Origin: Ruditapes philippinarum
Taxonomy: Eukaryota
Length of the DNA stretch: 64,000 nucleotides
Direction of reading: 5' to 3'
Assembly (NCBI RefSeq): GCF_026571515.1
Contig: NW_026855510.1
Location: 62,001 to 126,000 of the forward strand
Within the stretch, counting starts at the first letter, position 1. Every line of letters starts with the position of its first letter. The notes beneath the pieces are model-generated. The model searched no databases, was not told the origin of the DNA, and saw only the letters and a list, made by a program, of their open reading frames with translations. The translations under genes were made by a program, and so were the position numbers. This document shows, in pieces, positions 1 to 57,955 of this stretch.

Positions 1-194
1 AGTATACATGTAGAAGTCTTCTACAATAGTATGTCATATTCTGTTATATTATACGTGCGTTAATGAATCAAGTGCATAAAACTTTTAAAAAGCCAAACAA
101 TGACAATGGTTTTGATTTAATAAATACACATTATTATCAAAAAAATGATAAATCGATTTTTTGCAGTGGATGGGGTGACGTTAATATGAAATAT

Positions 195-429
195 AAGCCG
201 CGTCACGACAAAACCAACATAGTGCGTTTTCGACCAGCATGGATCCAGACCAGCCTGCGCATCCGCGCAGTCTGATCAGGATCCATGCTGTTCGCTATCA
301 GTTTCTCTACTTGTAATAGAGTTGGTAAGCGAACAGCATGGATCCTGATCAGACTGCGCGGAGGCTCAGGCTGGTCTGGATCCATGCTGGTCGCAAACGC
401 ACTATGTTGGTTTTGTCGTGACGCGGCTC
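195..429. mobile_element. Palindromic MITE, Sola-like non-autonomous DNA transposon (copy 1)
   Basis: Nearly whole-element inverted repeat, (G/A)AGCCGCGTCACGACAAAACC...GGTTTTGTCGTGACGCGGCTC, with internal GGATCC-containing sub-repeats. Five related copies occur in the window. Confidence 0.85.
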
Positions 430-1421
430 AATTATGTTATTATAGTGTAACACGTGTTGATTTCATACGGAGTCTTGATATTTGTCATTACACATAAAAC
501 CTGTCAAGTTAATACCAACTAATCTTACACAGCTTGAAATCTAGAATACAGTATGTAGAATTCTTATTGTAATAGGCCAGAGCAACATTTGGATCGGAGT
601 CATTTTTTTTACAAAATAAAATTACAAGTACAAATGAAATGCGCCATGTTTTGATAATAAAATTATGTGTAAGAAGAAGGTACTTTTAGTAACGTTGTTA
701 TTTAACTTATTAAAATAGCCCAAAAACTACTATCTTATACAAATGGTATTTTTTTAAACTGTTGATTTACTAGACTGATTTAATTCAGCCGATTTACAAA
801 AGTAAATGTTTGATGATTCATTGAAACACTAAATATCGTTTGTGTTAGATTGACATAAATTCTCTAAACATTGTTCGTCATTTTATTGGGTTTTCATTGT
901 GTGCCTTTTGCAGTCAAATAAAACATATGTCGATGAAGTTAAACATAATTTATTAGAATATTTTTGATCCTGTTGTTACCTATACTAAATATTTTTGTTT
1001 TGGTACTCTTCGTTCGCATGTTATTGCTTGATACATGTTAAATGTGTATTATGTAATCTGTGAAAATATGGAACAATAAAGTGAAATGATGTGAAAAAAA
1101 TGAAGTACAATATGCCAGTTCATGTACAAAGGTAAAATAAGAATTACTTTACATTTTGCCAAAATTGGTTTCAGTTTTATATTTTCATACGCAAAAATGA
1201 TAAAAATAACCAATAAAACCAAATAATATTTTATAAATAGACTTTATCGGTATAGACAATTTGATCTCTATTAAAACTAACCATTTTGCTTTTTTATTGT
1301 GAAACTGAATAGAGAATAGAAATATTTCATTTTATTTCATGTATATCTTATTATTTCATTAATACTTTTATATTTTGTTCATGGTTTCTTTACTTATGAC
1401 TTCAATACTTAAAGGACAATT

Positions 1422-1656
1422 GAGCCGTGTCATGACAAAACCAAGATAATGGGTTTGCGACCAGGATGGATCCAGACCAGCCTGCGCATTCGCGCAGTCT
1501 GATCAGGATCCATGCTGTTCGCTTACCAACCCTATTACAAGTAGAGAAACTGATAGCGAACAACATGGATCCTGATCAGACTGCGCGGATGCGCAGGCTG
1601 GTCTGGATCCATGCTGGTCGCAAACCCATTATTTTGGTTTTGTCGTGACGCGGCTT
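1422..1656. mobile_element. Palindromic MITE, Sola-like (copy 2)
   Basis: Termini GAGCC...GGCTT, flanked by a 4-bp direct repeat AATT (1418-1421 and 1657-1660). GRG termini with a 4-bp TSD are Sola hallmarks. Confidence 0.85.
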
Positions 1657-3009
1657 AATTATGTTACACATTATCTGACAAAAACAACAACTTATTCCTT
1701 GGCCTGAACAGAATTGTTATTATAAGGATCAACAAAATATACTAAAATATATTAATATTTAGCCAATTAAAAAATAAAGAATATTTTGTTATTGCATTAT
1801 TTAATGTTGTAATAGTGCATTATAGTTACAATGTATTCAATCTCGTATTCGTATTAACACCGGACAATTTATCACCAGATGCATTTCTTATATATGAGAC
1901 CCTTTGCTAAAAATGGCTGCTATTGTTATTTTAAGTAAAACAGCTTGACAAACAGAGGTTTCAAAAGTTATTGAATCAGATATTATAATTTCTATCAATG
2001 AATATAAATCTTGGCACAGGAAACATTCAATTGTATATACCGTCCTCAGAACAAGCGACAGAAAGAAAATTAATGATAGGCATTTTATTACTAGCGCAGA
2101 TATGGAAATAATTAAAAGATTTGGTGCAATATTAATGATACTAACACTATCGATGATGTCAATGTCATTTATGGCGTTTAAAGGTATTTGCAATTTTGTC
2201 TAGTATATTCATATAATAATTCTTTAGATCGTTTGTACATGTAACTATATGTCATAAGATGTTTTATAAGCGTGCTCAGGCACAGCTTATAAAGCAAGCG
2301 TCCAGCGAGCATGATAACTATTTCCTTTTACAAATTAAAACAACAATTTCCATGTGCAATAGCGAATGCCAATTTATTCTATCACAATATTAAAAATGAC
2401 AAGATAATGGTAATTTACATTGTTTATTAGACAATACAAAGCATTTACAAAATAAAAGAACGATATTATTTTGATAAGAAATATCAGGAATTAAAATTAG
2501 TTCTTCTTCTTCTTTGTTTCTTTTTTTTATTTTATTTTTATATTAACTTAAAAGTGTCAATTGTCTACACAACTCTTTAGTCTCTGTTATTATAACAATA
2601 AATTCACAGCCGACTTACTGATTTGCAAACAAGAGGTAGCACATTCTCTGAATGGAGCTCGGGAGTTATTTGAAATTACACGCATGTAAAATAAAGAAAT
2701 ATAAAAGTTTCTCAGGATAGACAATCAAGAAAATTGCTCTAATTCCGACTAAAAGTCTTGTTGCATAGAAGTTTATATGCTGATGTAATTTCATTATGGC
2801 CCCAAAATAGGTTTACATCCTTCGAATTCTTGACAAAATTAGCAAATACGTACGTTGTTAGTTTAAACATATTTCATTGCATCAAATACATGTCAAATAT
2901 TATACAAATTATGAGTATATGATAATAAAAAGCAAATGGGTTGGGCAACAATAAATGATTGTTGTCAGAAAAAAGTAGTTTTAACTTATCTTTGATCATC
3001 TGAAAGCAA

Positions 3010-3816
3010 TGTAGGAGCACATTTGTCTCGGAACACATTTATCTCACGAGGTGTGACCGATGTGTTCGAAAATATTCATATTTGCGACAGATTGGAAATG
3101 AGACTGATGTGTTCGACACACAATAGAAAGGACACTCGAAGCACATTTGTCTCACATTCTTCCATAAAATTCTACTTAAAAAAACTGTTCTGCTTAGTAC
3201 ATTGTAATTGATCGAAAAGGCGGATATAAAAATTGTTCTGGGTTTTCTGTATGTTCTGTTATACCGTTTTTATGTCACTTTCGGCCAATCAGAAACTTCC
3301 TGCCTCTGCATTGGTGTCATAAATTAACTTATGGAATATCCCTGTTCAGCATTTTACAGTGAAAGTTTCTACCAGTGCAGTATCCAGAACCCAAACACAT
3401 ATGCAGCATTTCCATTCTTATCGTTATTAATTTACGACGTTTCTTTCCGATGATTTAAGTTTTTTAAATGATTTAAAATATATTCTAAACAACAATGAGG
3501 TAGTATCTACGGTTGCATAAAGGTGATATATGATTTTCTTACTTATTTATTACGTGCGCACGCGATAGCTTTTACGTGGCCACGCGATACTCAAACGTAC
3601 GCACACGATAGCTATTACGTTCTAAAGGGATAGTTATTACGTGCGCACGCGATAACTATTATGTGCGCACGCGGATAGGTATTCCGCAGTTGGACCCTAA
3701 ACGGGCTTCCTCGCATGTATAGTTCGACGCCCCGAGTAATTGTTGAACCTACAGCGGTTAGGGACAAGTGAGGCCCCTAAATGAACTAAGGAAGAAAATG
3801 AGAAGACCATCCACGT
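3010..3816 (+). repeat. Interspersed repeat homologous to 16097-16475, with an extra internal segment and a short ACGTGCGCACGCGATA tandem array
   Basis: 3010-3210 and about 3640-3816 are nearly identical to 16097-16475. About five 22-23 bp tandem units lie at 3550-3675. Confidence 0.75.
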
Positions 3817-4197
3817 GTGTCAAATGTTTTTGAATGGCATTTGGAACGACAACCTGACTTTAAAAATAGCTCGAAATTTGTTTCAAAGGTTGAGCTAAAA
3901 TGATTAAATAAACAACAAAGCATGAATTTGTTTGGCTTTAAAAAAAACACCACAAAAAACAACAACAACAATATAAACAATAAAAAACAACAACAAAACA
4001 ATACCATTCATAGGAGTGATACAGTTTTTTTTAATAAAAGGCAACGTGTGTTGACAATAAGAAAGTGACAACCCAACAGGCAAAATGAATCCTCAAAAAA
4101 TCTCAAATACTAATATTGACATTTTTTTCTTGATAACGGCAATTACAAAAAATATCAAGTATATTGTTCTGAAAAGTTAATTAAAAGATTAGAGTCC

Positions 4198-7100
4198 TTA
4201 AATTGGTGGAGTTGGTGGGTTTCTACTTGACTCCTGGCTAACGTCTGCATCATCTTCAAATCCTCGTCTGTCCAACAACGTTGGTGCTTTAGGCGTGCAC
4301 AGGATATAAAAGCAGTTAGAGTACCAGCTACCCTGGCTGAATGGGTTTATGTTATTAGCAAATGTGTCTTTTAATGATTCGTTCGTGGTTTCTTCTCGGC
4401 AAACAAGACGTGCATGATAAACTACAAGACATAAAAGTCCGGTTAACAGTATTAGTAAGCAAAGGATTCCTTCAATAACACTGGGTATTGACTTCATAAA
4501 AGCTTCGTTGATTGGATATTCTTGTGCCCGGAAGGAGATAACTGCCACGTTACAGCCAATGACGTAACATGATAGCACGGTCGATATAATTAACAAAATA
4601 AAGTAATGTTTATAATTTCTTTTTCCGATGCAATTGGAGAGAAATGGGCAGTGGTGATCAAACCTTTCCACACAATTATCACAGACACTGCAATGGGATG
4701 ACCTGGGCGGTCTGTAGATCTTACACGTTCTGCAGTATTGCTGCTGGAATACTCTTCCTTTGATATCTGTTTCTGTGTAACGCGACCCGTTGTCGTCTGT
4801 TTTGTAGTTAATTTTTTCCTGTTTTTCAATATCGTAAGCGGTGGCTCGTGGTAAAATTCCGGGGTCAGTAAAAGCGGTCACGTTGAACAATACCAGCATA
4901 AGAAGAAAGATGGGCACCCCTAATGCTGGAACAACTGGGCTTACTCTTTTTGACAGATACACGCTGTCGAAGGCGAAAAACAGCCCTCCTAAAATAGAAA
5001 CAATTAAAAATCTTATTATCAAAATATGAACAGCAACGATGATATAGATTGATTTACGTTGAAAAATAAAATATACATATGACAAGTGAAAAACCCTGTC
5101 AGTCAAATGGAAATCTTTCTATATAGTCACACCGGTCATTTATGCACATTTTTACTGCTAAATTTATGTTGTTATTGTGACAGTTTACTTGTTTTTCTCC
5201 TATTAAATAAAATCATGCATCTAATAGACTAGTACATGTACCATCAAACAAAGATTATACTACATAACATAAAGGGTACGTATGTTTCGAGAAGTAGTGG
5301 TTAATTAAATCTGAACAGTAATAATACTGTCGAAATATAGTGCATTTTTAAAATCACGGTAAATAGTCGTTCAAAAACTAATTTGATGTTAGAAACCTTT
5401 AGTTAAGTGAATTATTTTGTGGGAATGAATATGCATTGATTTGAATTATTACTTTAAAAGTAATGCGTTAATTGATGTGAGGTTTCACTGCCCATGTTAG
5501 CCTTCAGTTATTTAAATGACAATTCACTGATAAAAGTTAAAATAAGGTAAAAAATCGATAATTAAGTAAATCACATGACATCACTAGTTATTAACGCAAT
5601 ATAACCATTATAAATGAGAACAAGAAAAGCATTGATGCAAAGCAGCAAAGGGCGTCCAGCAAGTGAAGATGAACTAGTAGACATATGATGACATAGAGGA
5701 TATTTGTTTAGTTCAGTGTAAGATCGGAATATATTTCACCGAGTGAGTACCAAAAGGTATATTTCACGAGTGGCGCAGCCACGAGTTAAAAATGAACTTT
5801 TGGTGTTCACATGGTGAAATATATTTTAATCTTACACTAAACTTAACAAATTTTCTTTTTATTACATGCAAAGAAACGTTTAAAAAGACTTTTTAACCTA
5901 GTACTAAATGAAAACCGCGCCAAATACTAATACAACGTGACGTCATTTATGGTTTCCAGTACTGTGCACGCTGGTATTTCACTAAAACAACGTAACGGGC
6001 TTAAATTCAAAACAGTGAAATTATCAAATTGGTAATTTCACTGTTTAAAACAGTGAAATTACCAGTTTTTATTTCGCTGATATATTTCTATAAACCACCG
6101 AAAAGCATGTTATAAAAGATATTCTTATAAACTTTTCAATGGTTAATTGGTTTTTACCAGAATTGTATATCACTTATGAATGAGCGGACGAAAGACATTG
6201 TTCATTATGAACTTTGGTAGGCATGCTAGAGATTAGAATATTACTTGTTTTTTTTTTCCACAGGAACTTGAAATTTTATCAATATTAACGATAATATCCA
6301 AAATATACAGGTCAATGATATTCAAAATATACTTTCCATATGGTATAAGTTTATTTATACTATATAGGGGGTATTTTTGGATATTATCATTAATATTGGT
6401 GATTTGATAGAATTTCAAGTTGATGTGGTATTTTCTTTGGAACATACAAAATAGTAGTCAAAATCAATAGTTCTTTTACATTTTTGAAATAATAAAATAC
6501 ATATATAATATTATAAATTATATTATAATTATTTTTTATGGTCATAAAATTTATGTTATATCGTGATTATTAATAGCAACGGATATATACAATCATTTTT
6601 AATCCATTTGTGTAAGGCATGGTCAACACCACACTTGTGTGTTGTCCCTTATTATGTTATCGCTGTTAGCGAAGACCCCCTCTTTATATCACCATGTTGA
6701 GCATAATTGTTTTATTATACAATAATTGTAATATTTATTTTAATTTTTTTTACATATTTCATGAATATTGTTTTCTTTTTCTTCCTTTTTTTGTGTTTTA
6801 TGTGTTATTTTAATACTGAGTTTTTACGTTTACTACTTTTTTATTATAATTGTAAAATAGATTTTAAGAATTCAATTGTCATATTTACCGACGATTATAA
6901 GTCAAAAATAAACTGGAAAAGTCAGTAAATTATGGTTAATATTTCAATACATTATATTGTTTATTCTTAAACAATGTACATGTACATTTGTATTTGTCTT
7001 TATCATTTTTTAAATTATCAATCAATTGAATAAAGCATAAAATTTAATTTGTAACTTAGAATAATTCCTCAGCATCTTTACTAAACACGAATTACAAATT

Positions 7101-8784: not shown

Positions 8785-10958
8785 TCGTAATTCGAGTCAT
8801 TTCTGTAAAAAAAAGAAAGAAAGTAAGACAAACTACAAGCTACTAGTATTGTAAAACAAAATTTAAAGTAACTTTTAAACGGAACAAGATATTAATAAGT
8901 CGGGGGGGGGGGGCAAACAAAATAAAGTAACTATGCAAGTGATATAAAAGAAAATTTGATATTTATTGTATTGTCGCAATGACCATTGGAATTTACAATG
9001 AGGAGTTAAATTTACCATTTACAGTTAATGAAATTCAGTCAGTTTTAAAGGCTTTAAAGAGCAACAAATCTGCATCACCAATGGATAATATCTTAAATGA
9101 ATATCTTAAGAATTTGCCCTGTTCAATGTTACCAGTTGTTTGCAAACTATTTAATATTATTTTTGATTCAGGTTTCTTCCCTGAAATTTGGAGTAAAGGG
9201 GTAATTCTTCCTTTATACAAGAATAAAGGTGATATTAATGATCCTGACAATTACAGGGGAATAACAATTTTGAGCTGTTTTGGTAAATTATTTACATCTG
9301 TTGTGAATAGTCGGTTGAATAAATTTTTAGAATCTGATAATATTCTTTGTGAAAAGCAAGCCGGGTTTAGAAAAAAAATACATTACAGTTGATCATATTT
9401 TTTCACTTAAATGTTTAATAGATTTGTACTTGGCTAACAAAAGAAAACTATTTTGTGCTTTTATTGATTATAGAAAAGCCTTTGATTCTGTAAATAGACT
9501 TGCTTTATGGAACAAGTTATTAAGTTCAAATATAGATGGTAAATGTTTTAAGATAATACACAATATGTATGAAAATATTAAGTCCTGTGTTAGAGTCAGT
9601 GACCATTTTTCTGACTTTTGGCGTCCGACAAGGAGAAAATTTATCCCCAGTTTTATTCTCTTTGTTTTTAAATGACTTGAACTCGTTCCTGTCTCAAAGA
9701 TTTGAAGGTTTAAATTTCCTGTCTAACAGTGTTAGTAACACTTTAAGCACAGATGATTTGAAGTTTATCTTAAATTGTTTATGTTGCTCTATGCTGACGA
9801 TACAGTTATTTTAGCTGAAAGTCCTAATGAGTTACAAAAAGCATTAAATGCAATGTCTGATTACTGTAATATTTGGGGTTTAAAGGTAAACACTGCCAAA
9901 ACAAAAATTGTTGTGTTCTGTAAAAGTAAAAGGGGGTGGAATAATATTAATCCTCTAGAATTTGAGGGTAACATACTTGAGATTGTAGATTGTTTTGATT
10001 ATCTTGGGGTTCAGTTTTCATTTAACGGAAAATTTTTAGGCACAAGAAAAAAACTGATTGATCAAGCTCGAAAAGCTATGTTTTCTGTGTTAACAAAGTC
10101 TCTCATTTGATATACAATTGAGTTTATTTGATGCAATGGTGGCTCCTATTATTTTATATGGATCCGAGGTCTTGGGCGTAGAAAATGTACAAATAATTGA
10201 TCGTTTCCAATTGAAATATATTAAATTAGTTTTCGGACTGAAGCAATCTACCCCATCATGTATGATTTATGGCGAGATAGGAATATTGCCTTTGTCTTTG
10301 CAAATTAAGTCAAGAGTTCTGAACTATTGGGGCAAATTGATTAATGATAAAAAGGATAAAATTTGTTTTATGCTGTATGTCAAAGAAACTTTACTCTGAT
10401 TTTGATGTGGATTTTCCTTGGTTGAAATTTGTGCATACTTCTTTAGATTCTCTCGGTCTGTCAAGTTATTGGATTTTTCAAACAGTTAGTTCTGTCCCAC
10501 ATTTTAAGAAAATTATTTCTGCTAGAATTAAGGATCAGTTTATTCAAGATTGGCAATCTTCTATTCATGAATCCAGTAAATGTCTGAATTATAGAATTTT
10601 TAAAACTCAATTTGGTTTTGAAAAATACTTTAACATTTTACCAACAGATTTAGCAATAGCGTTTTTCAAATTTAGATGTATGAACCACAAAATGCCAATT
10701 GAAACAGGTAGATTTTTTAATTTGGATAGAAGTCTAAGAGTGTGCTGTTTATGTTCTGATAATTTGTTAGGTAATGAATTTGATTATTTATTTCACTGTT
10801 CCTATTTTCAACACCTGAGAAAGACATATTTAGACAATTCATTTTTTCATAGACCTAACATTATTAATTTTTCAAATTTAATGAATAGTGAAAGCAAAAA
10901 TGTTTTATTCAATCTAGCAATATTCTGTAAGAAAATAATCTTTGTGCTTAATAATACA

Positions 10959-11333
10959 TAGAGGATATTGAATGAGTGTAGGTTTAATACTAAATTTATT
11001 GAACGAGTTGAATAAAATCATATTATGCGAGCCTCTGGCGAGCATAATATTCTTTTATTCAACGAGTTCAATAAATTTAGTATTGAATCTACACGAATAT
11101 AATATTCTATTTATCACATATATAAAATAAGAACGGTAAATTGTTAAAAAGAGTCATTTTTCTTTGACGCGCCTATAGTGTAACGCTAACATTAGCGCGC
11201 TTTAACGCTATGTTTATAGCGCAAATGACGTGACGTCAAAGTGTTATTACACTAGTGTAATATTGTCTAGTGTAATATCGTTTTTATTAAATGGCTTTAT
11301 TACACTCCTGTGCCGCGGTTTATGTGATAAATA
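10959..11333 (+). mobile_element. Hairpin/internal-complement element (Crypton-like), first of a head-to-tail pair
   Basis: TAGAGGATATT start and a palindrome of about 145 bp centred on GCGAGCCTCTGGCGAGC. Internal AATATTCTATTTATCACATA (11101-11120); end TATGTGATAAATA. Confidence 0.7.
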
Positions 11334-11731
11334 GAGGATATTCAAGTTTTTTCTATAAATACATGATTTATTTTCATCGAGTGGTATGAAAATAAATATT
11401 TCATGAGTGGCGGTAGCCACGAGTGAAATATGGTAATTTTCATGCCACAAGATGAAAATAAATCATGTATTTATAGAAAAAACTTGAATTTTCTGTTTAT
11501 TATGTACATTTTTCTCTTTTTTGCGATAAAATTTGAAAAACTTTCCCTTAAATTTTGTGTATTGGTAGAATTTAAAAGAAAGTAGCCCGCAAGACACCAG
11601 TGAAAATACGGAAAATATGTTGCATTGCAGTGAAAATTATTTTTTTTACGGTGAAAATGTGGAAAAATAAAAATACGCATTTTATTTCATCAATATTTCT
11701 CAATATTTCCTTTATAAGTATATAATAAATA
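11332..11731 (+). mobile_element. Hairpin/internal-complement element (Crypton-like), second of the pair
   Basis: TAGAGGATATT start and a palindrome centred on GAGTGGCGGTAGCCACGAG. Internal TGTTTATTATGTAC (about 11494-11507) is complementary to the end GTATATAATAAATA. Confidence 0.7.
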
Positions 11732-12602: not shown

Positions 12603-14378
12603 TAGAGAATAACATGCTACTGTCTTTTGATATCAATTTTATCAGGCGAGGCTGATATGGGCTAGAAAGGGCGAGGCTTGCCGAGCCCTTTCTGCCCATA
12701 TCAGCCGAGCCTGATAAAATTGATATCAAAAGACAGTAGCATGTTTTTCTATTTATCATGTAACACATAATAACTGTCAAAATAACAAAATAATCTACTT
12801 TTAAATATCGAATTTCGTTAAAAAGGGGGATTTTTGTTTAAAGAAATAATTCTTGAAAATAAATTCCTCCGCCCCTGAAACTTTGAATTTATAAATGGCG
12901 GCCATTTTTTGTTTCGATTCGGATAAAAGATACAACAGAATGTAGGCCTTATACGATAAAATTCTTACCTTTAATTTAAACATCAAACCAAAAATCCACT
13001 TAGAATCACATAAACTAAACTTTACTGCAATTTTTGTCTTGAATTGTCAAATTCAAAAGTTCACGATAATTTCAATCAAAGAAAAGTCAAATCGGCAATC
13101 AAACACAAGCTACACAAACATGCGTCTTATTTTTTAAAGTTCACTTATTAAATAGTAATCCGGCGAAATAAAGTAAACATTTACAAGTTCTCAAAGAAAA
13201 TCGTCTAGCCTGTTTGTTATGAGTACTGGCATGCGAGCAGTTCCCGTACAAAAATCGTAGTGACTTAAACATTATTTTTTATTACGCTCACTCACCAAAA
13301 TTTGAACGTTACACATCAATATTCGGCTCGTCACACAAATCATGGAAATTCCATCATGTTCTAAACATAGAATAACCCTTAGTTATGAGGCCTCATATGG
13401 GGTACCGAAATTATCCATTATTTTGTATGAAGAGAAGTAGTTCCCGTACATAAAATTTAACCCATTATAATTATACAATTTTGTTATATCAGACCTATTT
13501 TTCATTTATAATTGTTGAACAGACCATTTTCTAAGAGATTAATAGATGTAATTCAGGAAATAGAAAGTAGACTAAACGCGTGTATCTATTACCCGGTACC
13601 GTTACCCCCAACGCATTCACATGCGATGGCATGCTTGTATGCATGATATTTTACGCATCAAAGCCATAAAATTATTTTATATAGTAATATTGGTCAAAAT
13701 TCTGATAATTAAACAAGTTTTCATCACATTGCCTTGTTATCTGTAAACAGGTGGTATAAGTGGAAAACCCTTTAACATGCCTCACGTGTAAGTATGTTTG
13801 CGCATGCGCGCAAGGACGGAATCCCCCAGATAAAACAAGGTCACGTTTTGACAACGCACAGGTGAAAGTGATTTAAAATGAGACTTTTTATACGTACTGC
13901 CGAACTGATACTAAGATTTTGTCTCGTTTATATATCTTCTTGATTTGAAATGAATTTTTGAAGAATGCATGTAAAAATCAAGCGTTTAAATGAAAAATAC
14001 GGGTACTGCTTCTGTACGGGAACTGCTCGCATGCCAGTACATGTATAGAATGACGTGAACATCGAATCGATGATGTCATTTGCAATATAAATTATGACGT
14101 CACTTCATTTAGTTGGTACTAAAACTATTCGCTATCTAATTTATTCGTAATTGAAATCGAAATTATAAATAAATATCACATCTTGATTCAAGACTTGTAA
14201 GGGTATTAGATTACATTGTAGAATTCACATGCTGGTGAAAATGAGAATATAACCAATTGAAAAAAGTCCGTTAAAATGGGCGGGGCTTATTTTTGATATC
14301 AGGTTACTGACCTGATATCAAAAATAATTATCAGGCAAGTGTTATCGGGCAGTTACCATAGCAGTTGCATGATAAATA
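12603..14378 (+). mobile_element. Long hairpin/internal-complement element (Crypton-like) carrying a nested TIR element
   Basis: TAGAGAATAACATG start and a near-perfect palindrome of about 145 bp centred on CGAGGCTTGCCGAG. Internal CTATTTATCATGTAAC (12749-12764) is complementary to the end GTTGCATGATAAATA. Confidence 0.65.
13226..14037. mobile_element. Non-autonomous TIR DNA transposon with TA target duplication (Tc1/mariner-type TSD)
   Basis: 25-bp perfect TIR CTGGCATGCGAGCAGTTCCCGTACA / TGTACGGGAACTGCTCGCATGCCAG, flanked by TA at 13224-13225 and 14038-14039. No transposase ORF. Confidence 0.8.
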
Positions 14379-18288: not shown

Positions 18289-19989
18289 ATTCGATGCACA
18301 AGACGAATAAAGAGCTTAAACCTCCGTCAGCTTACAATCCAGAATATAATTACACCCTTATCCAGGTACTTATCTGTCTGATATATATATCACTTGTGCT
18401 GTTACCTGTTAAGCAATTCACTGATAATTGCAATTTAAGTGAATATCAAAATTGTATAACTAGTATCAAAATTGTATCACTAGAATGCACTTAATCCGTC
18501 ATTGTACAAAGAATAATGTTAAAAAGAAATTGTAATTCAAACATTCCATGCGAATAATACTGTAATAGTCATAAATTATATCCGTCATTCCAATGGCTGT
18601 AGAGGAATTCAAATAACTAGTTTTGGCTCAAGTTGATAAAACTAAAGATGTAAAAGGTATAATTGCGTTAGATGTACCAGTTTCCATTTTCATTTATAGA
18701 TATACTCTTTCAAACATAGCCTGCATTTTTAAACAATTGTTTTGTTTTAAATACTTTCGGGGATTCTCATTTTAGAATTTTAAGACTTTTTTTTTCTAAT
18801 GTGAATGAATGAAATAAGTGTTGCTGTTTTTTTGCAGAGCAGAATGCATACTTTGTTGATTGAACGTAACAATTTGGAAAACAGACTTAAATTGAATAAA
18901 GCGTGTACAGATCAAAGTACGCCACAACATACCGCTTTAGATCCCGATAAAATACAGGACAAAGTTTGGATAGAAAGAAAGCACTCTATTCTCTTTTGCG
19001 GGTTACCAAAGGTAGGATCGACATTTTGGAAGAGAACATTAACAGTGTTAGCAAGTGGTACAAAGAAATCTCCGTTTCAGCTGACATTAGGAAGTGTGCA
19101 ACTTGTACATTTCGTTGATTTTAAAAGTCAAATGAGTAGAAAGAATTTAGAGGGATATCTAAAAAGTGTTAGCTCTTTTCTATTTGTCCGGGATCCCTAT
19201 AGTAGATTATTTTCAGGATATGAGCACAAGTTATACAATCCAAATTTAAGTTTTTGGAAGTCGTATGGAGTACCAATTGTGAAGACAATAAGAAAGAATC
19301 CATCAAAAGAGAGCCTGAAATTTGGTCATGATGTAACATTTGCTGAGTTTGTACAGTATATCTTGAAGCAAAATGATAATAATGAAAGAATAAATACTCA
19401 CTTTAAACCAATGTATCAGAAATGTGACCCTTGCGGACTTCCATATGACTTCATTGGACATCTAGAAACATTTAAACAAGACGCTGAGTATCTTTTTGAC
19501 AGATGGAGAAACCAGTTTTCAGACTTCAATATTCATTTTGGTGATTTTGAAAAGGAAACTGTATTAGATACTGCTAAAAGCCTTATTGGCCTATCATTTA
19601 GATCATATTCAGCCATTAAAAGTGATTTCAAATATCCATTTTATAACTTACTTCTAAGAGTATGGAGTGATCTCCAAATTCGAGGTTATTTATCTAAGGA
19701 TATTCCTTTTCCATATAATCAGCACGATGTAGAAAGTTTAACCACCTCAAAGATGCTGAAAACTGTATCTGATGCTTTGGAGATTAAAGTAAATAAAACT
19801 GCTGTTAAACTGCAGAGGCAAGAGTCATTGCAACAAGCATACAGTACTGTGTCTCTTGAAGACATGGAAAGACTTCGTAAATATGTTCTTAAAGATTGTC
19901 AACTGTTTAGTTATGATGATAGACCGAAACTACTTTTTGATAGGAAAAATATGTTGAACAATGAACATATTTACATGGCAGGCATTTAA
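18289..19989 (+). CDS. Carbohydrate sulfotransferase (Sulfotransfer_2, CHST11-like), array copy 1; exons 18289-18365 and 18838-19989; first (TM) exon not securely placed
   Basis: 5'-PSB motif FCGLPKVGSTFW, 3'-PB motif FLFVRDPYSRLFSGY, and CDPC..YDFIGHLETF. Splice sites TTTAG|AT, CAG|GTACT and TTTGCAG|AGC have the same phases as copies 3 and 4. A weak exon-1 candidate lies at 17891-17969. Confidence 0.88.
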
Positions 19990-27135: not shown

Positions 27136-27794
27136 ATTCATAAAATTCTAGAATATACAGTTATTATATTGGAAACTATACACACATACTTAATATGTCT
27201 TTATATTAGAATAATAAGGGATTTGTTCATACCACAGGTGTTTGCACGTAACATATCTTCAATCCCTCAAATACCTCATTTGGAATGTTGCCATCATTAG
27301 GATTATTATCATATCTTATTTACGCAGCTGTTATTCCTGAATGAATGGACAAAATGGCAAAAAAGGGAAGGTACGGCACTTCTTGTCACATTGTTCGGTT
27401 ATAAAACATTGTACAGCTGCAGGTTGTTGTATTTTTAACTTGTATCAAAATATACTTGCTATAAAATTATTAGTGATGAAACTTGTACAAGACTGCCATC
27501 GAATTTCAAAACAAAAACTTTCTTATATTTGTAATGCTTTGTAAAAAAGAGTATTAGTTTTGGGAAAAAATGAATTTTCAAAATAAATTTTTAATGATTT
27601 CATCTCATTTTTTTTTTGTTTTAAGACCAAAGCGAAAGCTGCACATCAAAAGGTTTACTCCATGCATCTTATTTGGCAAGTATAATTGTAACATCTGTTT
27701 ATTAATCTTTATATATCTGGAATCATGTGAATGTTACATGATCATGTTAACATGAGCCTTGACTATAGGACACTAGAATACAAAATATATTATA

Positions 27795-28001
27795 GTGGGT
27801 TTGCGACCAGCATGGATCCAGACCAGCCTGCGCATCCGCGCAGTCTGATCAGGATCATGCTGTTCGCTTACAGACCCTATAACAAGTAAAGAAACTGATA
27901 GCGAACAGCATGGATCCTGATCAGACTGCGCGGATGCGCAGGCTGGTCTGGATCCATGCTGGTCGCAAACCCATTATGTTGGTTTTGTCGGGACGCGGCT
28001 C
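27795..28001. mobile_element. Palindromic Sola-like MITE (copy 3, left end damaged)
   Basis: Same core as 1422-1656; ends GCGGCTC. Confidence 0.85.
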
Positions 28002-28076
28002 AAATAGAAACTATACAAGTCAAGCTAGTTTTTCTAAATATACTCATCGGAACAAACGAAATTACATGTATAAGAT

Positions 28077-31697: not shown

Positions 31698-31885
31698 CAC
31701 AACAAAACCAACATAATGCATTTGCGACCAGCATGCATCCGCGCAGTCTGATCAGGATCCATGCTGTTCGCTTACAAACCCTATTACAAGTAGAGAAAGT
31801 GATAGCGAACAGCGCGGATGCGCAGCCTGGTCTGGATCCATGCTGGTCGCAAATGCATAACGTTGGTTTTGTCGTGACTTGGCTC
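31698..31885. mobile_element. Palindromic Sola-like MITE (copy 4, internally deleted, left end lost)
   Basis: Same core as the other copies, bracketed by a 16-bp direct repeat CATTTCTAGTTTCACA. Confidence 0.8.
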
Positions 31886-32302
31886 ATTTCTAGTTTCACA
31901 TACCGATTTATGTAGAAATAATAAACAAAATATATTAGATACAAGTATATGTAAAACATGCAGTAATTCATGTTCAATATGTACTGACATGCTAAAACAA
32001 AAGGTTTAATTTTTTCAACTTATTTGAGGACAGGAAACACATTTATTTATATTATATCCTTCTCCTCTTTTTTGTCAACACAAATACATACAGCTGGCAA
32101 ACCGTACTGAGCAACAATTTATTTACTTATCAAGTCATGGAATCATTTAAACATTATGGTGTTTTACTTACATTGGCTACAGTAACGACAATGTTATACA
32201 TTACGACAAAAGGTAATATCTCTTTATTGTATTTGTTTGTACTTAAATATGTCACATATTTTTCTAAATTGAAAATTGCACACTGACCTTTCAAATAAGC
32301 AA

Positions 32303-33427: not shown

Positions 33428-34572
33428 GAAATAACCAACTGGAAGCAAATAGAATAAACCTTGACGGTTTAGAGGAGAACTAGGCCATGCAAAGAGGCTC
33501 TACTGAATACGACAAGCCATATACAATCCCGAGAAGCTTTTTTAATGGGCGACGGAACACTCTATTCTAATATTGGTGCTATAAAGTCCAAAGTAGCATC
33601 AGTTTGGAGGCGAATTTATCTATAATACTATCTGTCGATAAAAACATTAACTCACCATTTGAAATAACACAGAAAATGTTAAAACTAGAAGCTTTTTCAG
33701 ACCTTAAACGTGATATGATAGACCAAACTATGGATAATTTCCTGAAAAACGTCACGTCATTTATGTTTGTAAGGGATCCGTATGGTCGCTTGTTTTCAGG
33801 CTATGAACACAAGTTATATAATCCAAATTTATCATTTTGGAAATCGTATGGAATGAAAATCGTCAGATCACTGAGGACAAATCCATCTAATATGAGTCTA
33901 AAATTTGGACATGATGTAACCTTTGCGGAATTTGTGAAATATGTTTTATTACAGAAAGACAATAATCAGGTCATAAACAGACACTTCACACCCATGCATC
34001 AGAAATGTGATCCTTGTAAATTTCCATATGATTACATCGGACATCTTGAAACATTTAAAGACGATACTGAATACCTGTTTAATAAGTGGAGAAGAAAGTT
34101 TCCCGACTTTAACATTCACTTTAATAACTTTGAAAAGGAAACTGTTTTAGACACTGCCGGAAGTCTAATCCGAAGATTATTTAACACGTATAATAAAATC
34201 AAAAGCGAATTTGAATACCCATTGTATAATTTAGTTCTCAGAGTGTGGAGTGACCTTCAAATCCGAGGTTATCTATCTAAAGATATCTCCCTTCCATTTG
34301 AAAAGCAAGACATGGAAACAATAACTGCTGAAAGTATGCTGAAAGCTGTGTCGGATGCTTTGAAAATACAAGTGAATCATACTGCAGTAAAACTACAGCG
34401 ACAAGAATCATTGCAACAAGCTTACAGTACTGTGTCCCCAGAAGATATGGAACGACTGCATGAATACGTCCTGAAAGATTGTCAATTATTTGGTTACGAC
34501 GACAGACCAAAGTTGCTGTATGAGACAGGAGAGCTTTTAGAAAGTAAACATACATACCTTGCCGGTATTTAA
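33428..34572 (+). pseudogene. Carbohydrate sulfotransferase (CHST11-like), array copy 2; 5' part of catalytic exon frameshifted
   Basis: Open and highly similar to its paralogs from about 33616 to the stop (FVRDPYGRLFSGYEHK...). 33428-33615 retains recognisable HSIL/PKVAS/WRR nucleotide remnants, broken by several indels and stops. This could be an assembly error. Confidence 0.7.
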
Positions 34573-37283: not shown

Positions 37284-37675
37284 CTATTTTGCATCATAGA
37301 TTAGGGACCTTTCTGTTGAAAATGTGTCAGAGTTAAATCGTATACATATGCATGCACAGTGCGTTAACTGGAGAGCAGGTATTAGTTACCCGCACTCCAG
37401 AGCATGCCCATTGATTGGCTCATTTTTGCTGGGGTTTACTTATTGTGACGGCAGAGAAAAAGAAAGCGACAGAAATATCATATTCAGATGCTCGTTCATT
37501 GGTTCCTTTTTTATGGGGTTTTATTTTGTGACAACAGGCAACGTGTTTTTTATGTTTGACTATGATACAAAAGAGAAATAACATGAAAACACTCGGCAAT
37601 CTGATTAATACTCGGTGGCTACGCCCCCCCCCCCTCGTGCAAATCAGATAACCGCATGTTTCGATGCTATTTCTA
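37284..37675 (-). mobile_element. Hairpin/internal-complement element (Crypton-like), reverse orientation
   Basis: Palindrome at about 37573-37675 centred on GTGGCTACGCC..CTCG. The adjacent CTATGATACAAAAGAG (37560-37575) is inverted to the distal CTATTTTGCATCATAG (37284-37299). Confidence 0.6.
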
Positions 37676-38304
37676 TTACTAAAAGATTGACCACTAAATA
37701 AGATATTACGGAAAACTTCTTATTTAGATTCTTTTCTTGCTACGTTCCGCAAGAGGGAATAACTATAATTTTTTGGACGTAAAGGTAAAAGAATAGCCAA
37801 ATATTCAATCTATGCAATGGGAGTTGGTGGGTATGGAGGAAAGTGTATGGCCGGGGAGGAAAATAAATGGGATTTTAGAACAATCGATCGGAAACGTGAA
37901 CAATGACATATTCGAACAAGGAATATTCGAAAGTAAAGAATTTTAAAAATTCAAAATTTATGAAATGATAAAAAGTAGATTCCCATCCGTTATCAAAACA
38001 AGAATAATTTCAGAAATATGTTGAACTTTTTGAAAAACGACAATACTACTGCGTTCAGACGCAGCATTTGAGACGTTAACTGACTTACTACCATTCCAAT
38101 TTTACTTATTTAAAACGTGATGGTATCGATTGTTCAATTAGCGTCTGTGGAGATATTGTAGGCTCAATTAACGCGTCAATACCTTGTTATAAGGACATTG
38201 GACACAGCTTGCCACCAAATTTGTCTAATGTATAATTACGGAATTAAAATGGTTAGCCGTGTTATTATGTGTTATTATATAACAATCAGCAGTTTAAACA
38301 AGAT

Positions 38305-40888
38305 ATGGAGATGTTAAAGCATTGTGGTAGCGTACTAGTCATATTTAGTGTTACTATTTTAATATACATTCTTAGTCAAGGTAATACCAATTTTGTATTG
38401 ATTTGAATATTCAATAATAGTTAAGAATTTCATTAAAAACTATTTTATCGCTGATAAATCTTATGCATATATAGATTAGCATCAAATGATCATTTATATC
38501 AAAATTTATTCAGAACTCTTTTTAGTAAAATACTGACATACTTTTCTTATTTTCGTTTTAATTGACGAAATTGTAAGATAATATATATTCATCTTGATTT
38601 ATTTGTACCTTACCCAGATGTTACAACTGGGAATATGATGTTTGTGATTTCACAAGAAACAAGAAACTTGTCCGAGGATGATGAATTTCAGGTTTGGTTT
38701 TGGTTTTTTATTTTAATTTTTTTTTATTTCATATTTAAACTAGATTCTAGTAATAGAATTGAAATATTAATACCAAAAATGGTTCTTAACATGCATTAAA
38801 ATTGTCAAATGATGTTATTAGATTAAAGTATGAAATTTTGTAATAATTAAGGATGAAACTATATTTTCACATTTTATCTCACCTAAAAAAATCAAACACA
38901 TGTATTTATCTGTGAGATTATTATGCATTGTTGATTACGATACTGAATTCTATTGGACTAGCACACAGCTGTAAAACTATATAGGTCGAGGCCAAGTCTC
39001 CTCGTATTATGTCTTTAAGTTTCCTGTGTCTACTCGATCTATGAGACCATCGAGTCGTTGTTAAGCCTTACAAGGTCTAGATAGCTAAAAAATCGACGCT
39101 ATCGTTAGATGACCCGACTTAGTGTTTGATATGTTTGGGACAGAAACTAATGCAACTCCGAGTATTAATAGTGGTGGTTGATATTTCGGGGTTTGTTTAG
39201 GGTTGTTTTACTCTGAAAATGAAAAAGGCTACAATGAGTACAATAGTCATTTGATGTTAAATGTATGACTCGGAAAATAATAATGAGGATAATTTTATAA
39301 AATAAGTTCGATTTATGATTTATATTGGAAGAAAGCTTGAAGTTCTTTGGTTATATCTTATTAGATGTGAAATAAATATTTTTTTAAGAAATATTTAAAC
39401 GGTATCTTTGTAAATATAAAATAAACATGTTTTAACTTCACACAAAGTAGAAATGTTATGTTTAAACTGCTACACTGTATAGGTGGTCACAATATGAATA
39501 TGAACTCGTAGTCATTAACAAAACTGACAGTTTTTTTTTTTAAATAAAATACCAACTTTACTTTACCTGAAACAGGAAACGCAGCTTATACATAAATACA
39601 TGTAGTTTATTAATTCTTTTATTCAAATTAGACATATTCAATAAGAAATTTATAGACTTCAATAAATTGCTGTAATTATTATATATTATTCTCAAGAATG
39701 AGCATAGTATATCTTTAACAAAACCCACATTAAAAAATGTTTCAGGAACAGACACGACCGGTTGAAAGTTCAAACAGGAAACATAAACTCAAAATAGCAA
39801 AAGCGTGTGAGGATCAAGGCACTCCGCAAGCTACAGAATTAGAACAAATGAAAATTCCGGACTTTATTTGGGTAGAAAAGAAACACTCTCTTCTTTACTG
39901 TGCAATACCAAAGGTAGCATCGACCTTTTGGAGACGTACAGTGACCATCATGGGATCAAACGAAAACGTTAACTCTCCTTTTGAAAGCAAAAAAACTGAC
40001 CTGAGAAATTTTGGTAACTTAAAAAGAGACATTAATGAAAAGAGTGTAGATGATTTTCTGAAAAATGCAAGCTCGTTCTTGTTCGTACGTGATCCATATG
40101 GCCGGCTGTTCTCTGGGTATGAACATAAATTATATAATCCAAATTTATCATTTTGGAAGAATTATGGTATGAGAATCGCCAAAACAGTCCGGCAGAATCC
40201 CTCTAATGAAAGTCTCAGATATGGTCATGATATTACATTTGCAGAATTTGTAAAGTATATTCTGTTTCAAAAAGATAATCATTATAGAATTAATCGACAT
40301 TTTACACCAATGTACCAAAAATGTGATCCATGCAGAGTACCATATGACTACATTGGCCACTTAGAAACTTTTCGACAAGATGCTGAATATCTATTTGGTC
40401 TTTGGAGACGCAAATTTACGGACTTTCATATTCATTTTAATGACTTTGAAAAGGAGACAGTATTAGACACAGCTGGAAGTCTGATTAACAGGTTATTCAA
40501 TTCATATAATAAACTTAAACCTGATTTCAAATACCCTTTCTATAATTTAGTTCTTAGAGTATGGAGTGACCTTCAAATAAGAGGATATTTATCTAAAGAT
40601 ATACCACTACCATTTACAAAGGGAGATGTAGACACGTTAACCGCTGAAAATATGTTGAAAGCTGTATCTGACGCTTTGGAAACTAAAGTTAATTTAACCG
40701 CTGTTAAGCTACAGCGACGAGAATCTTTGCAACAGGCGTACAGCACAGTGCCACTTGAAGATATGGAACGACTACATGAATATGTTCTAAAGGATTGTCA
40801 ATTATTCGGTTACAATGACAGACCAAAGCTTCTCTACGAGAGAGGGCAGCTTCTAGAAAGCAATCATTTATATCTTGCAGGTCTATAA
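38305..40888 (+). CDS. Carbohydrate sulfotransferase (CHST11-like), array copy 3; join(38305..38380, 38618..38691, 39746..40888)
   Basis: Exon 1 encodes a type II signal-anchor, MEMLKHCGSVLVIFSVTILIYILSQ. Junctions are GT-AG, phase 1 then phase 0. Catalytic motifs YCAIPKVASTFW, FVRDPYGRLFSGY and CDPC are present. Confidence 0.92.
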
Positions 40889-44602: not shown

Positions 44603-47109
44603 ATGGAATGTCTTAAGTATTATGGTGTTCTATTGATGATATTAGTTGTTACAATGGTTTTGTATATTCTTCACAAAGGTAACACGTTTCTTCATTTTTG
44701 TTGATCTGTCTTTTAACTAATTTAAAATCTGTCTCTCTTGTTTGTAAGGAGAGACATGAAAGTGTTATTTTCATTGATGTTCGTGTCACGTGAATGGTTA
44801 TTATTGGTAATGAATCTAGGTGGGCTCAAATTTTTTACTTTTTACCCTGAATTGAGTTGCAGATATCTGACACAAAACGCCACCGCTCCATATTGTTTTA
44901 CTATTTTTGATAAAGTATGGGTTAAAGTTATTCTACATTGATTACATGTGTGCTACAATCTTGTTATCAAGCGAAAAAGTCAGCCGACCAAGCTGAGCAT
45001 CCGATTCTTTTTTTATTTTATTTTTTATTTTAAAATACATTCAAGGTCATTCAAACCAAGGTTTAAAATGAACATATGTCTTCGAAAACTCCAGTTCTAC
45101 AATGTCAAACTTTGTCACGTTTTATGCAATATATTATGCAATAAATGATTTAGTGAGGATTTCTAAATTTAGATATTTCTATTGTCATGCTAATTCTTAC
45201 TGAGAGTATGAAAATATTTGTACATGTGCAAACATGCATATACCCTGTTGATTTTGAACGGAATTTCGACATTTGTATAATTTTTAAGCTATCATTTACT
45301 TTGTATCATTTAGTTGTTGCAGAACGGTATGGTAGAACCATGAAATTGTAATACTTGTTTGGGCAGGTATTGGTTTACATGAAACTTGCACTTAAAGAGT
45401 TCGATATTTATTTTTTTTAAAATTCTTCTTTTTTTTCCTTGGTGTGAAAACAGACATCGGAGAAAATACATCGATGCTTGCAGCCGTCAAACCGCCTGAA
45501 TCTGCTAATTGTTCAAATGATCCAATCAATCAGGTTAGTTGTCTTTTCATTTGACTGAAATTATTGATATTTATATATAAAGAGATGATTAAGTTGTTTG
45601 ATATTTAAGTTAGACGACTCTATTTCCTCCAAGAAAGCATATAGCACTAGATCGTTTTGTATACCTTCCTTTCAAGTGAGTCTCTCGTACAGTTGATCAG
45701 CACTGGTGCCACATGGATAAACATGGTCATGACACTAATAAGTCCCAAACCCACGATCCCTGGGTTGAGAGACAGACATCTGAACCATAAGGCCACAGCC
45801 CCGCATGAGTGTATGATTGATTGGTTTCAGATTCATTCTTGTTAAGCGTTTTTGCCCTTTGTATACAGTCATCAATAAACTTAAAATAAATGTTATCAGT
45901 GTGTCGTCTTTGATTTTTTTTCAGAAACATAATCATGTTGATTAAATATTTCAGAAATATGTTAATACCTTATTGGTGGAACGGACCAACTTAGAACGTA
46001 GACTTAAACTAAATAAAGCATGTACTGATCAAGGCACACCACAGCATACCAATTTAGATCCGACGAAAATACAAGAAACAGTTTGGGTCGAGACTAAACA
46101 TTCAATATTCTATTGTGCTATAACAAAGGTCGGATCAGCGTTTTGGAGACGTACATTGTCAATTATGGCTTCAGAGAAGAATTTCAGCTCACCCTTTGAC
46201 ATATCACAAGGTTTCTTTAAACTAGAACAATTTATTAATATCAAAAATAGCTTTAATGAAAAGGAGTTAGAAAGTTTCTTGAAAGGTGTTACTTCATTCA
46301 TGTTTGTAAGAGATCCATATGGGCGATTATTCTCCGGTTATATTAACAAAATATATGACACTAATCCAGCTTTTTGGGGTAGGTACGGGACAAAAGCTGT
46401 TCAGTTGTTCAGGAAAAACCCTTCTGAAGTAAGTCTCAAGTATGGTCACGACGTAACATTTGCAGAATTTGTAAAATTCATTTTACTCAGGAAGGAACAA
46501 AATGAATCGATAGACAGACATTTCGCGCCAATGCACGAGAAATGTAACCCGTGTGGTCATCCTTACGACTACATTGGACATATTGAAACATTCCGGCAAG
46601 ATACCGAGTATCTCTTTGATCAGTGGAGAAACAAATTTACTGATTTTAAAATTCATTTTGATGATTTTGAAAAGGAAACTGTCTTGGATACGGCCGGGTT
46701 ACTTATTCGTCGAATGTTTAGTTTCTATACAAAAAACAAACGTAATTTCAAATATCCGTTGTATAATCTAGTTCTAAGAGCATGGTGTGATCTTCAAATT
46801 CGAGGTTATTTATCAAAAGACATTCCACTACCATATACTAAACATGATGTGGAAAATTTAACAGCGGCAAAAATGTTGGAAGCGGTATCTGCTGCTTTGG
46901 AGATTAAAGTCAATCAAACTGCTGTTAAACTCCAGCGACGAGAATCGTTGCAACAAGCATACAGTACTGTGTCCCTTGAAGACATGGAAAGACTTCGCGA
47001 ATACGTGCTCAAAGATTGCCAATTGTTTAGTTATGATGACAGACCAAAACTCCTTTTTGATAGAAGTAATATGTTAGAAACTAAACATTTTTACTTGGCA
47101 GGTATTTGA
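44603..47109 (+). CDS. Carbohydrate sulfotransferase (CHST11-like), array copy 4; join(44603..44678, 45454..45533, 45955..47109)
   Basis: Exon 1 is 76 nt, as in copy 3, and encodes the signal-anchor MECLKYYGVLLMILVVTMVLYILHK. GT-AG junctions have matching phases. Catalytic motifs YCAITKVGSAFW, FVRDPYGRLFSGY and CNPC are present. Confidence 0.92.
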
Positions 47110-56467: not shown

Positions 56468-57955
56468 TTTTTATCCCCCGCCGAAAAGGCGGCGGGGGAT
56501 ATAGAAATAGTCTCCGTCCGTCCGTCGACCTTCCGTCCGTCCTTCCGTCCGACATTTTTGTCCGGAGCATATCTCAAAAAGTATTTGAGTTATCAACTTG
56601 AAACTTCATAGGTGAATAGACCTCATTAAGGAGGAGTGCAGTGCACAAGAATGATAACTCTACCTTGCATGATTTTTGAGTTATTGCCCTTTGTTATTTT
56701 TCAAAATTGATTTTTGTCCAGAGCATAACTCCAAAAGCCTATGAGATATCAACATGAAACTTCATAGGTGCATAGATCTCACTCAGGAGGTGTGCAGTGC
56801 ACAAGAATGATAACTCTACCTTTCATAATTTTTGAGTTATTGCCCTTTGTTATTTTTCATACTTAATTTTTCACCTGAGTGGAGCATAGCTCAAAAAGTG
56901 TTTGAGATATCAACATGAAATGTCATAGGTAGATAGATCTTATTGAGGAGGAATGGTGTGCGCAAGAATGATAACTCTTCCCTATACATTTTTTGAGTTA
57001 TTGCCCTTTGTTCTTTTTCATGCTATTTTGTCCAGAGCTTATCTCAAAAAGTATTTGAGGTATCAACTTGAAACTTCAAAGGTGGATGAATCTCATTGAG
57101 GAGGAGTGCAGTGCTTAAGAATGATAACTCTACCCTGCATTATTTTTGAGTTATTGCCCTTTGTTATTTTTCAAAATTAATTTTTGTCCAGAGCATAACT
57201 CAAAAAGCCTTTGAGATATCAAAATAAACCTTCATAGGTGCATAGATCTCACTCAGGAGGTGTGCACTGCACAAGAATGATAACTTTACCTTTTATAAAT
57301 TTTGAGTTATTGCCCTTTGTTATTTTTCATACATAATTTTTCACCCGAGTGGAGCATAACTCAAAAGTGTTTGAGATGTCAACATGAAATGTCATAGGTG
57401 GATAGATTTTATTGAGGAGGAATGCTGTGCAAAAGAATGATAACTCTTCCCTGTACAATTTTTTAGTTATTGCCCTTTGTTCTTTTTCATACTATTTTGT
57501 CCGGAGCTTATCTCAAAAAGTATTTGAGGTATCAACTTGAAACTTCATAGGTGGATGGATCTCATTCAGGAAGAGTGCAGTGCACAAGAACGATAACTCT
57601 ACCCTGCATAATTGTTTAGTTATTGCCCTTTTTTTATTTTTCAAAATTAATTTTTGTCCAGAGCATAACTCAAAAGGCCTTTGAGATATCATTATGAAAC
57701 TTCAAAGGTGCATAGATCTAACTCAGGAGGTGTGCAGTGCACAAGAATGATAACTCTACCTTTTATAATTTTTGAGTTATTGCCCTTTGTTATTTTTCAT
57801 ACTTAATTTTTCAATTCAATTTTTTTCTCAAAAAGTATTTGAGGTATCAACTTGAAACTTCATAGGCGGATAGATTTTACTGAGGAGGGATGCAGCACAC
57901 AAGAATGACAACCTACCCTGCATTATTTTTCAGTTATTGCCCTTTGTTATTTTCA
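56468..57955 (-). mobile_element. HINE/pearl-type element with a satellite array of about 157 bp, inserted in the LINE
   Basis: T-run plus hairpin ATCCCCCGCCGAAAAGGCGGCGGGGGAT, a (CCGT)n microsatellite, then nine monomers marked by AAGAATGATAACTC. The distal end appears truncated. Confidence 0.8.

Follow-up and report, generated by a model that had tools for sequence, protein, structure and literature searches.

Five elements in a 64,000-nucleotide stretch of the Ruditapes philippinarum genome (the window) raise the question of how DNA with one particular arrangement of ends is cut out, closed and inserted. The layout A-hairpin-A'-B'...B, as read from the sequence, is common to all five (E1 to E5), each having a long terminal hairpin, B' directly after it and B at the far end, and so the sequence-only reading that had proposed five such elements here was right on this point. 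Folding of the E2 region gave z = −11.0 and folding of the E3 region z = −12.2, with 0 of 100 shuffles equally good in each case. All five are dispersed multi-copy families with sharp ends in their own genome, from which 140 distinct full copies were extracted (27, 32, 28, 27 and 26 for E1 to E5), being taken from the best 40 of 997–4373 candidates per own-genome query and so the top-scoring matches.

The copies fix the limits given in Table 1. The places first read for the elements stood, and four right ends had to be corrected, to 6116, 11331, 11729 and 14376; the invariant base 10958 is probably also part of E2. For E5, first read as 37284–37675 reversed, the strand was correct and the limits were not, the element running from 37679 to 37289, which is a start 4 nt earlier and an end about 5 nt sooner. 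E4 had been taken as one element of 12603–14378, and its layout holds, but 818 bp of that span is an unrelated nested element with terminal inverted repeats (TIRs), which from the pattern of its ends we take to be Tc1/mariner-like; its copies are 97–98% identical and it is also nested in another locus (L057). The head-to-tail fusion of E2 and E3 is real, although what it joins is two different families, the B of E2 to the A of E3. The end sub-type of E5 differs from that of the other window elements and resembles the recombinase family L158–L160. A stretch at window 1291–1364 weakly resembles the right end of an E3-like family (76%, E 4e-6), and is possibly a sixth, decayed member.

Table 1. 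The elements and their parts, in window positions
Feature	Positions	Strand	Remarks
E1	5694..6116	+	Non-autonomous; hairpin 5694–5857, B' from 5858, B end 6116
E2	10959..11331	+	Non-autonomous element
E2 A-stem-A' hairpin with tandem G.A blocks	10959..11109	+	A exceeds A' by 2 nt
E2 internal A'B' site	11101..11121	+	A'/B' boundary after 11109; mirrors the joined ends, 5-nt spacer
Head-to-tail B/A junction of E2 and E3	11320..11342	+	Boundary between 11331 and 11332; 7-nt spacer
E3	11332..11729	+	By sequence match, internal-deletion derivative of the L128/L216/L227 recombinase family; A'/B' boundary after 11495
E4	12603..14376	+	Non-autonomous; about 960 bp minus the nested insertion; A'/B' boundary after 12751
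Nested TIR element in E4	13223..14040	.	Unrelated, 818 bp; 28-bp inverted ends, TA on both sides; its own high-copy family
E5	37289..37679	-	Older copy of the fifth family; A'/B' boundary after 37571

What moves them is indicated by the longer elements that carry the same ends. A PF12012 (DUF3504) profile search of the clam's own genome gave 149 matches among 150 scored, and partner ends were examined in 30 recombinase loci and in 40 longer segments, some of them covering loci already among the 30. The A-hairpin-A'B'...B ends were found to flank elements of 2.2–4.3 kb that encode a DUF3504 tyrosine recombinase, both here and in metagenome contigs, so that the long recombinase-encoding members that had been anticipated do exist and have these very ends around the gene. 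The design flanks the recombinase in at least eight groups (L116/118, L114/117/119/122, L128/216/227, L147/148/224, L158-160/221, L143/144, L220 and L218) and, less surely, in L149/150 and L156; several of the own-genome groups examined have no such ends (L111/112, L139/140, L154/155, L120/121 and L127). Relative to the element as drawn, the gene is encoded by the other strand and is read towards the hairpin. The L116 element is 2167 bp long with one 495-aa frame, in which Pfam finds only DUF3504, Phage_integrase and a weak QRICH1; the 2.2–2.5 kb partners have the recombinase frame only, with no reverse transcriptase and no extra C-terminal domain, and nothing is repeated between the two ends of the partners except the short B. 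The L116 protein (P0001), which sits inside an element with E2-like ends, scores 100 bits with PF12012 and 31.5 bits with PF00589, and the putative catalytic set R-K-H-R-H-Y is intact in it and in P0002 (R264, K297, H-x-x-R, the second H and the Y), a third protein, P0003, being cut short before the catalytic residues. The predicted fold of P0001 is closest to QRICH1 and Cre, with the integron integrase at rank 35, and at residues 31–74, in front of the recombinase body, the model has a small domain of beta-strands that is predicted with confidence. Among named proteins, the homologues nearest to the recombinase are from bivalves, then gastropods, octopus and cnidarians, and carry KIAA1958/ZMYM-like annotations.

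Particular window elements can be tied to particular recombinase families. Bases 1–233 and 237–398 of E3 match the two ends of L128/L216/L227 at 85–89%, and E3 is, on the strength of these matches, a plain internal deletion of the L128 recombinase family. The first 162 bp of E2 are 85% identical to the left end of the L118 recombinase element, and E2 shares both ends, more weakly, with L117; E4 has no coding partner among the recombinase loci examined. The earlier suggestion that the five are non-autonomous substrates of a tyrosine recombinase is thus supported, by coding partners with the same ends and by E3 as a deletion derivative, and of the DIRS or Crypton kinship that went with it the Crypton part stands and the DIRS part falls, the partner being of the CryptonA type. 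The five elements are almost certainly recombinase-moved Crypton derivatives, probably of the CryptonA subgroup: they go with a DUF3504 recombinase, the residues for catalysis are intact, there is no TIR or target site duplication (TSD), and short derivatives share the ends. Different ends are seen near two further DUF3504 matches (L151:1622-5382 and L157:2221-5551), which have hairpins at both ends, and the ends of L151 are copies of one another in inverted orientation, with one and the same inner stretch next to each hairpin. In or beside four recombinase loci lies a palindromic repeat, at most about 250 bp long (L123:845-1091, L136:2482-2700, L146:2149-2387 and L155:1323-1468).

The internal A'B' had been read as the reverse complement of the joined B and A. 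The match does run for 15 nt, but it is not exact, since A then has 2 extra bases in all five window families, with boundaries set by 26–32 copies each. This offset of +2 of A over A' occurs in 21 of 23 elements as drawn, the exceptions being L149 (+3) and L245 (+1); a test on single-copy flanks scored +2 at 60 against 61 for −2, A resembling B at a shift of −2, and in single-copy elements the left boundary is one that we infer. B and B' co-vary base by base across families, as had been foreseen for the subfamilies. Over positions −14 to −6 of 18 distinct B sequences, the match to the family's own B' averages 7.83 of 9, against 3.22 to the B' of other families, and in 0 of 10,000 permutations was the observed match reached, a certainty that is overstated given that the families are related. 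All four types of Watson-Crick pair are found at columns −10, −9 and −6.

The flanks of the 140 copies bear out the lack of conventional TIRs and long TSDs, there being no target duplication past one shared base. Comparison with empty sites agrees: a scan found a match for 20 of the 140 copies, about half of these being self or tandem artefacts, and the roughly ten genuine empty sites have a gap of 0 with no bases gained or lost, as for the E1 site that occurs in its empty form in L162. Among 114 E1–E4 sites the target has T at −4 in 89, A at −3 in 98, T at +7 in 87 and A at +8 in 70, and is thus two short, degenerate boxes 6 nt apart. Base −1 is A in 113 left ends and in 109 right ends of these copies. 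We read the left A as the first base of the element itself and the right A as the first spacer base of the target, and therefore the target spacer as 6 nt; on the same reading the B/A junction has a spacer of 7 nt and the internal A'B' one of 5 nt.

The hairpins, with stems of about 45–80 bp, seem built to fold on one strand. A loop of CGAG-like sequence had been proposed, and this did not survive: the motif belongs to the stem, where the two CGAG copies stand opposite one another so that consecutive G and A bases are opposed (tandem G.A), and inside them are a stem of 2–5 bp and then a loop of a few bases. The arrangement C-G, G.A, A.G, G-C is known as the CGAG block from NMR structures of DNA hairpins, where its G.A pairs are sheared, according to the available text of PMC10085684. 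The complementary strand of such a block would give T.C and C.T, so that the G.A pairs are confined to one of the two strands. Of 29 chosen hairpins (17 own-genome and 12 outside), 28 have tandem GA/GA and 1 has tandem TC/TC; among 28 unselected outside hairpins downstream of a gene, GA alone is seen in 20, TC alone in 3, both in 1 and neither in 4, and in four outside hairpins (L253, L278, L291 and L306) all or part of the G.A pattern falls on the opposite strand. None of the 12 copies tested from a control family has the blocks; this family, unrelated and with 27 members, is also one of long hairpins and occurs at window 182–442, 1418–1660, 27762–28006, 31735–31896 and 49073–49307. The top strand is the more stable in 26 of the 29 hairpins. 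A bias in G.T wobbles looked promising in the majority stems of E1–E4 (11 G.T against 1 A.C, foot included) and was gone over the 29 hairpins, in which the wobbles taken together favour neither strand (39 G.T against 31 A.C, p = 0.40). Many of the tips, judged by eye, are C-GNA-G loops, which the accessible part of PMC3201870 gives as a stable DNA loop, and these point to the folding of DNA rather than RNA, the folding strand being in addition different from the mRNA strand of the recombinase gene.

How such ends might be used is suggested by the one-strand hairpin and the internal mirror of the joined ends: we propose that the elements circularise as a folded single strand and integrate by one strand exchange, a chemistry known from integrons, and would put the probability at roughly 55%. 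Once free, at a replication fork or in a cruciform, the top strand would fold into the long stem, stiffened by its tandem G.A blocks, and at the foot of it A would pair with A' and the left flank (later B) with B'. That pairing would build a two-box recombinase site with a spacer of 7 nt over 5 nt, at which the recombinase would cut the top strand one base before the drawn start of A and one before the drawn end of B. A single exchange would then join B to A in a single-stranded circle, its junction splinted by A'B', and the folded junction could recombine with double-stranded DNA at a target whose two short boxes are separated by 6 nt. Integration would need about one base of identity and no second exchange, replication or repair resolving the junction. 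On balance, animal CryptonA may therewith be a eukaryotic single-strand recombination system, having a bulged 7-over-5 site, dif-like double-stranded targets and a single exchange. Counting against the folded strand are the lack of a G.T bias, the opposite-strand G.A pattern in four hairpins, the exceptions to the offset, the recombinase groups and outside contigs without the ends and the enzyme fold nearer to Cre. Since the families are related to one another, counts taken across them lack independence.

The main support for a single exchange, which is indirect, comes from what insertion leaves behind: no duplication, a left end with the spacer of the element and a right end with the spacer of the target. 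The element spacer is at the left in 113 of the 114 E1–E4 copies, the remaining copy having a mutated start, and the seven copies with a spacer-like run at the right all retain the left spacer, five of them being tandems. Two exchanges across a non-homologous spacer should leave swapped copies after replication, as with the coupling sequences of Tn916-type elements. Swapped copies would then be expected in about half of cases if the mobile form were a double-stranded circle, excised and reintegrated by two exchanges, with A'B' as an accessory or decoy site and the hairpin a cruciform or regulatory structure. There are none among the 114 E1–E4 copies, which are top-scoring ones, and none in the E2 set of 32, E2 having the only queries neutral to the swapped product; a query in the swapped form gave, besides the window, three matches that reach its end, of which the two examined are tandems. 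Only the product that a single strand exchange would give has been found. A double-stranded circle is nevertheless the published proposal for Cryptons (in the accessible portions of PMC3212892 and PMC13565253), and it goes well with the predicted Cre-like fold of the enzyme and a target that looks like an ordinary two-box site, while two sites bound by one protein would co-vary too. It leaves unexplained the one-strand G.A blocks, and likewise the pair of 7- and 5-nt spacers that brackets the 6-nt target spacer, and so we hold it unlikely, if the best of the alternatives.

Less probable again is a circle completed by the host, for which A'B' would be a splint like that of DIRS elements, host enzymes extending and ligating B to A on a displaced strand that is then made double-stranded, with the recombinase used only to integrate. 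The order A...A'B'...B is indeed that of the ICR (internal complementary region) in DIRS, which in the available text of PMC7192593 is essential for DIRS-1 mobility, and complementarity to both ends is conserved here. As in DIRS-1, the internal stretch has complements of the two termini side by side, their order unchanged, and insertion into own copies occurs (same source). A splint should be perfect at the nick, yet the 2-nt offset adjoins the nick in 21 of 23; the 2.2-kb partners with their one long frame encode neither a reverse transcriptase nor a Rep by which the strand might be made; and integration of a double-stranded circle meets the problem of the swapped product once more. DIRS elements have RT/RNase H, gag, long ITRs and an 88-bp exact ICR, as that paper's relevant sections have it (PMC7192593), whereas RT is wanting here, the match on B is about 11–16 bp, A has its 2-nt offset and a hairpin stands between A and A'. 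Rolling-hairpin or Helentron-type mobility by an HUH Rep, to which the layout read backwards pointed at first (asymmetric inverted repeats like the ATIRs of Helitron2 and the subTIRs of HINE, a terminal hairpin and no TSD, in the parts of PMC3627910 and PMC4067079 at hand), was dropped once recombinase partners appeared in place of an HUH Rep-helicase and is very improbable, the stems being about 45–80 bp against the short 5–10 bp palindromes that the available text gives for mite HINEs, the target not TT-specific, and the tip unflipped in all 140 own-genome copies.

Single-strand exchange into a two-box site would leave both element ends as targets, and the outcome, head-to-tail arrays, is shown in the genome. 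Exact head-to-tail neighbours make up 11 of the 140 copies and 12 more touch or sit inside a family member, 23 of 140 with tandem pairs counted twice, against a background family cover of 1.3% in 200.7 kb of distal flank and 0 in 66.7 kb around an unrelated element, so that the proposed preference for own sequences is upheld. One E1 copy lies within the internal site of another E1 (L183) and one E2 copy lies opposite an inverted B with a short spacer between (L006). Both cases fit the two-box target, and therefore better site quality may explain the self-preference with no special mechanism. In contigs from four public runs at L118, a form of data that loses rare species, no B-to-A circle joint was among the joints listed, and tandem copies would in any case give the same B-A junction as a circle. 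One contig of run X10 joins 543 to 2695, which is the L118 locus minus the element, with an A-run that masks the footprint. The inner hairpin is inverted relative to sister copies in two metagenome loci (L253:1089-1224 and L306:4670-4819), by a real flip or through short-read assembly; these partly flipped hairpins may be assembly artefacts.

Relatives outside this genome were sought with an alignment of 30 homologues, which found 80 metagenome loci and 5 genome-bin loci, 83 of them scanned. The metagenome recombinases have about 40–56% protein identity. Most contigs are short, and 25 have room for the ends (450 bp or more upstream and 650 bp or more downstream): the hairpin is downstream of the gene in 16 of these, with the full design in 8 and a truncated B in one more, and 9 of the 25 show no such ends. 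Two shorter contigs (L232 and L264) also have the full design. The viral contigs searched held no relative. Among prokaryote genome bins there were 5 matches, three strong and two weak, the weak ones being excluded from the scan; the strong ones (L311, L312 and L313), in bacterial bins, are genes for Crypton-like recombinases, of which L311 has the complete end design and L313 belongs to a 439-kb contig, and are probably, we infer, animal DNA in the bins.

Several known systems share parts of this picture. CTX phage has a dif-like target with a 6-nt spacer and integrates in tandem, borrowing host enzymes and taking its single strand from rolling-circle replication, unlike the elements here, which encode their own recombinase and no Rep. 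Its attP, used by XerC/D, is like the site proposed here in that a recombination site arises from single-strand fold-back (PMC4792948, in its available part). The attC x attI reaction of integrons is alike in its tyrosine recombinase, in the favouring of one strand as a folded site with unpaired bases and, as we would have it here too, in a single exchange with a double-stranded partner that replication then resolves, going by the excerpts of the same review (PMC4792948). Integron cassettes as described there have two hairpin sites and a fixed attI; here one hairpin plus splint would serve both ends and the targets are degenerate, and the enzyme is predicted to be closer in fold to Cre. To CryptonA, in the accessible text of PMC3212892 and for Glomhopper of PMC13465315, the likeness is one DUF3504-type recombinase, a length of about 2 kb, no TIR or TSD and abundant short derivatives that share the ends, and the difference from CryptonA as those texts describe it is the terminal hairpin, the internal mirror of the junction and the defined target. 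Kojima and Jurka in 2011 reported no terminal repeats for animal Cryptons, and the two CryptonA rows shown of their supplement have "n.d." (PMC3212892, in part); the available text of the 2026 Glomhopper paper calls the repeats variable or poorly conserved and does not use the word hairpin (PMC13465315), and a 2026 review, in its available part, has the Crypton transposition mechanism as undemonstrated and assumes a double-stranded circle (PMC13565253). No account of these ends turned up in the Crypton literature searched, and one may exist in Repbase Reports, Dfam, Goodwin 2003 or subscription reviews.

With exact ends, a target profile, an enzyme that by its sequence looks intact and cis elements that can be mutated, the Crypton mechanism becomes directly testable. 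If the folded-strand reading is true, integron- or CTX-like chemistry would extend across molluscs and other marine animals and would supplant the double-stranded-circle model, and as a tool, a small eukaryotic recombinase able to insert folded single-stranded DNA with no double-strand break would be of interest. The end design also supplies a rule by which many hairpin repeats still unassigned in the genomes of molluscs and other invertebrates can be classified.

The window itself is AT-rich, in an assembly of 1.4 Gb, and also has a piece of a DHHC gene, a sulfotransferase cluster and LINE fragments. A broken LINE reverse-transcriptase frame (8943–10961) ends where E2 starts. Four tandem paralogous long frames lie at 18805–19989, 33571–34572, 39734–40888 and 45946–47109, and the two that were scanned match Sulfotransfer_2. 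At 56513–57953 a tetranucleotide microsatellite is followed by about nine units of 156 bp, a pattern that we presume to be that of bivalve HINE/pearl-type elements.
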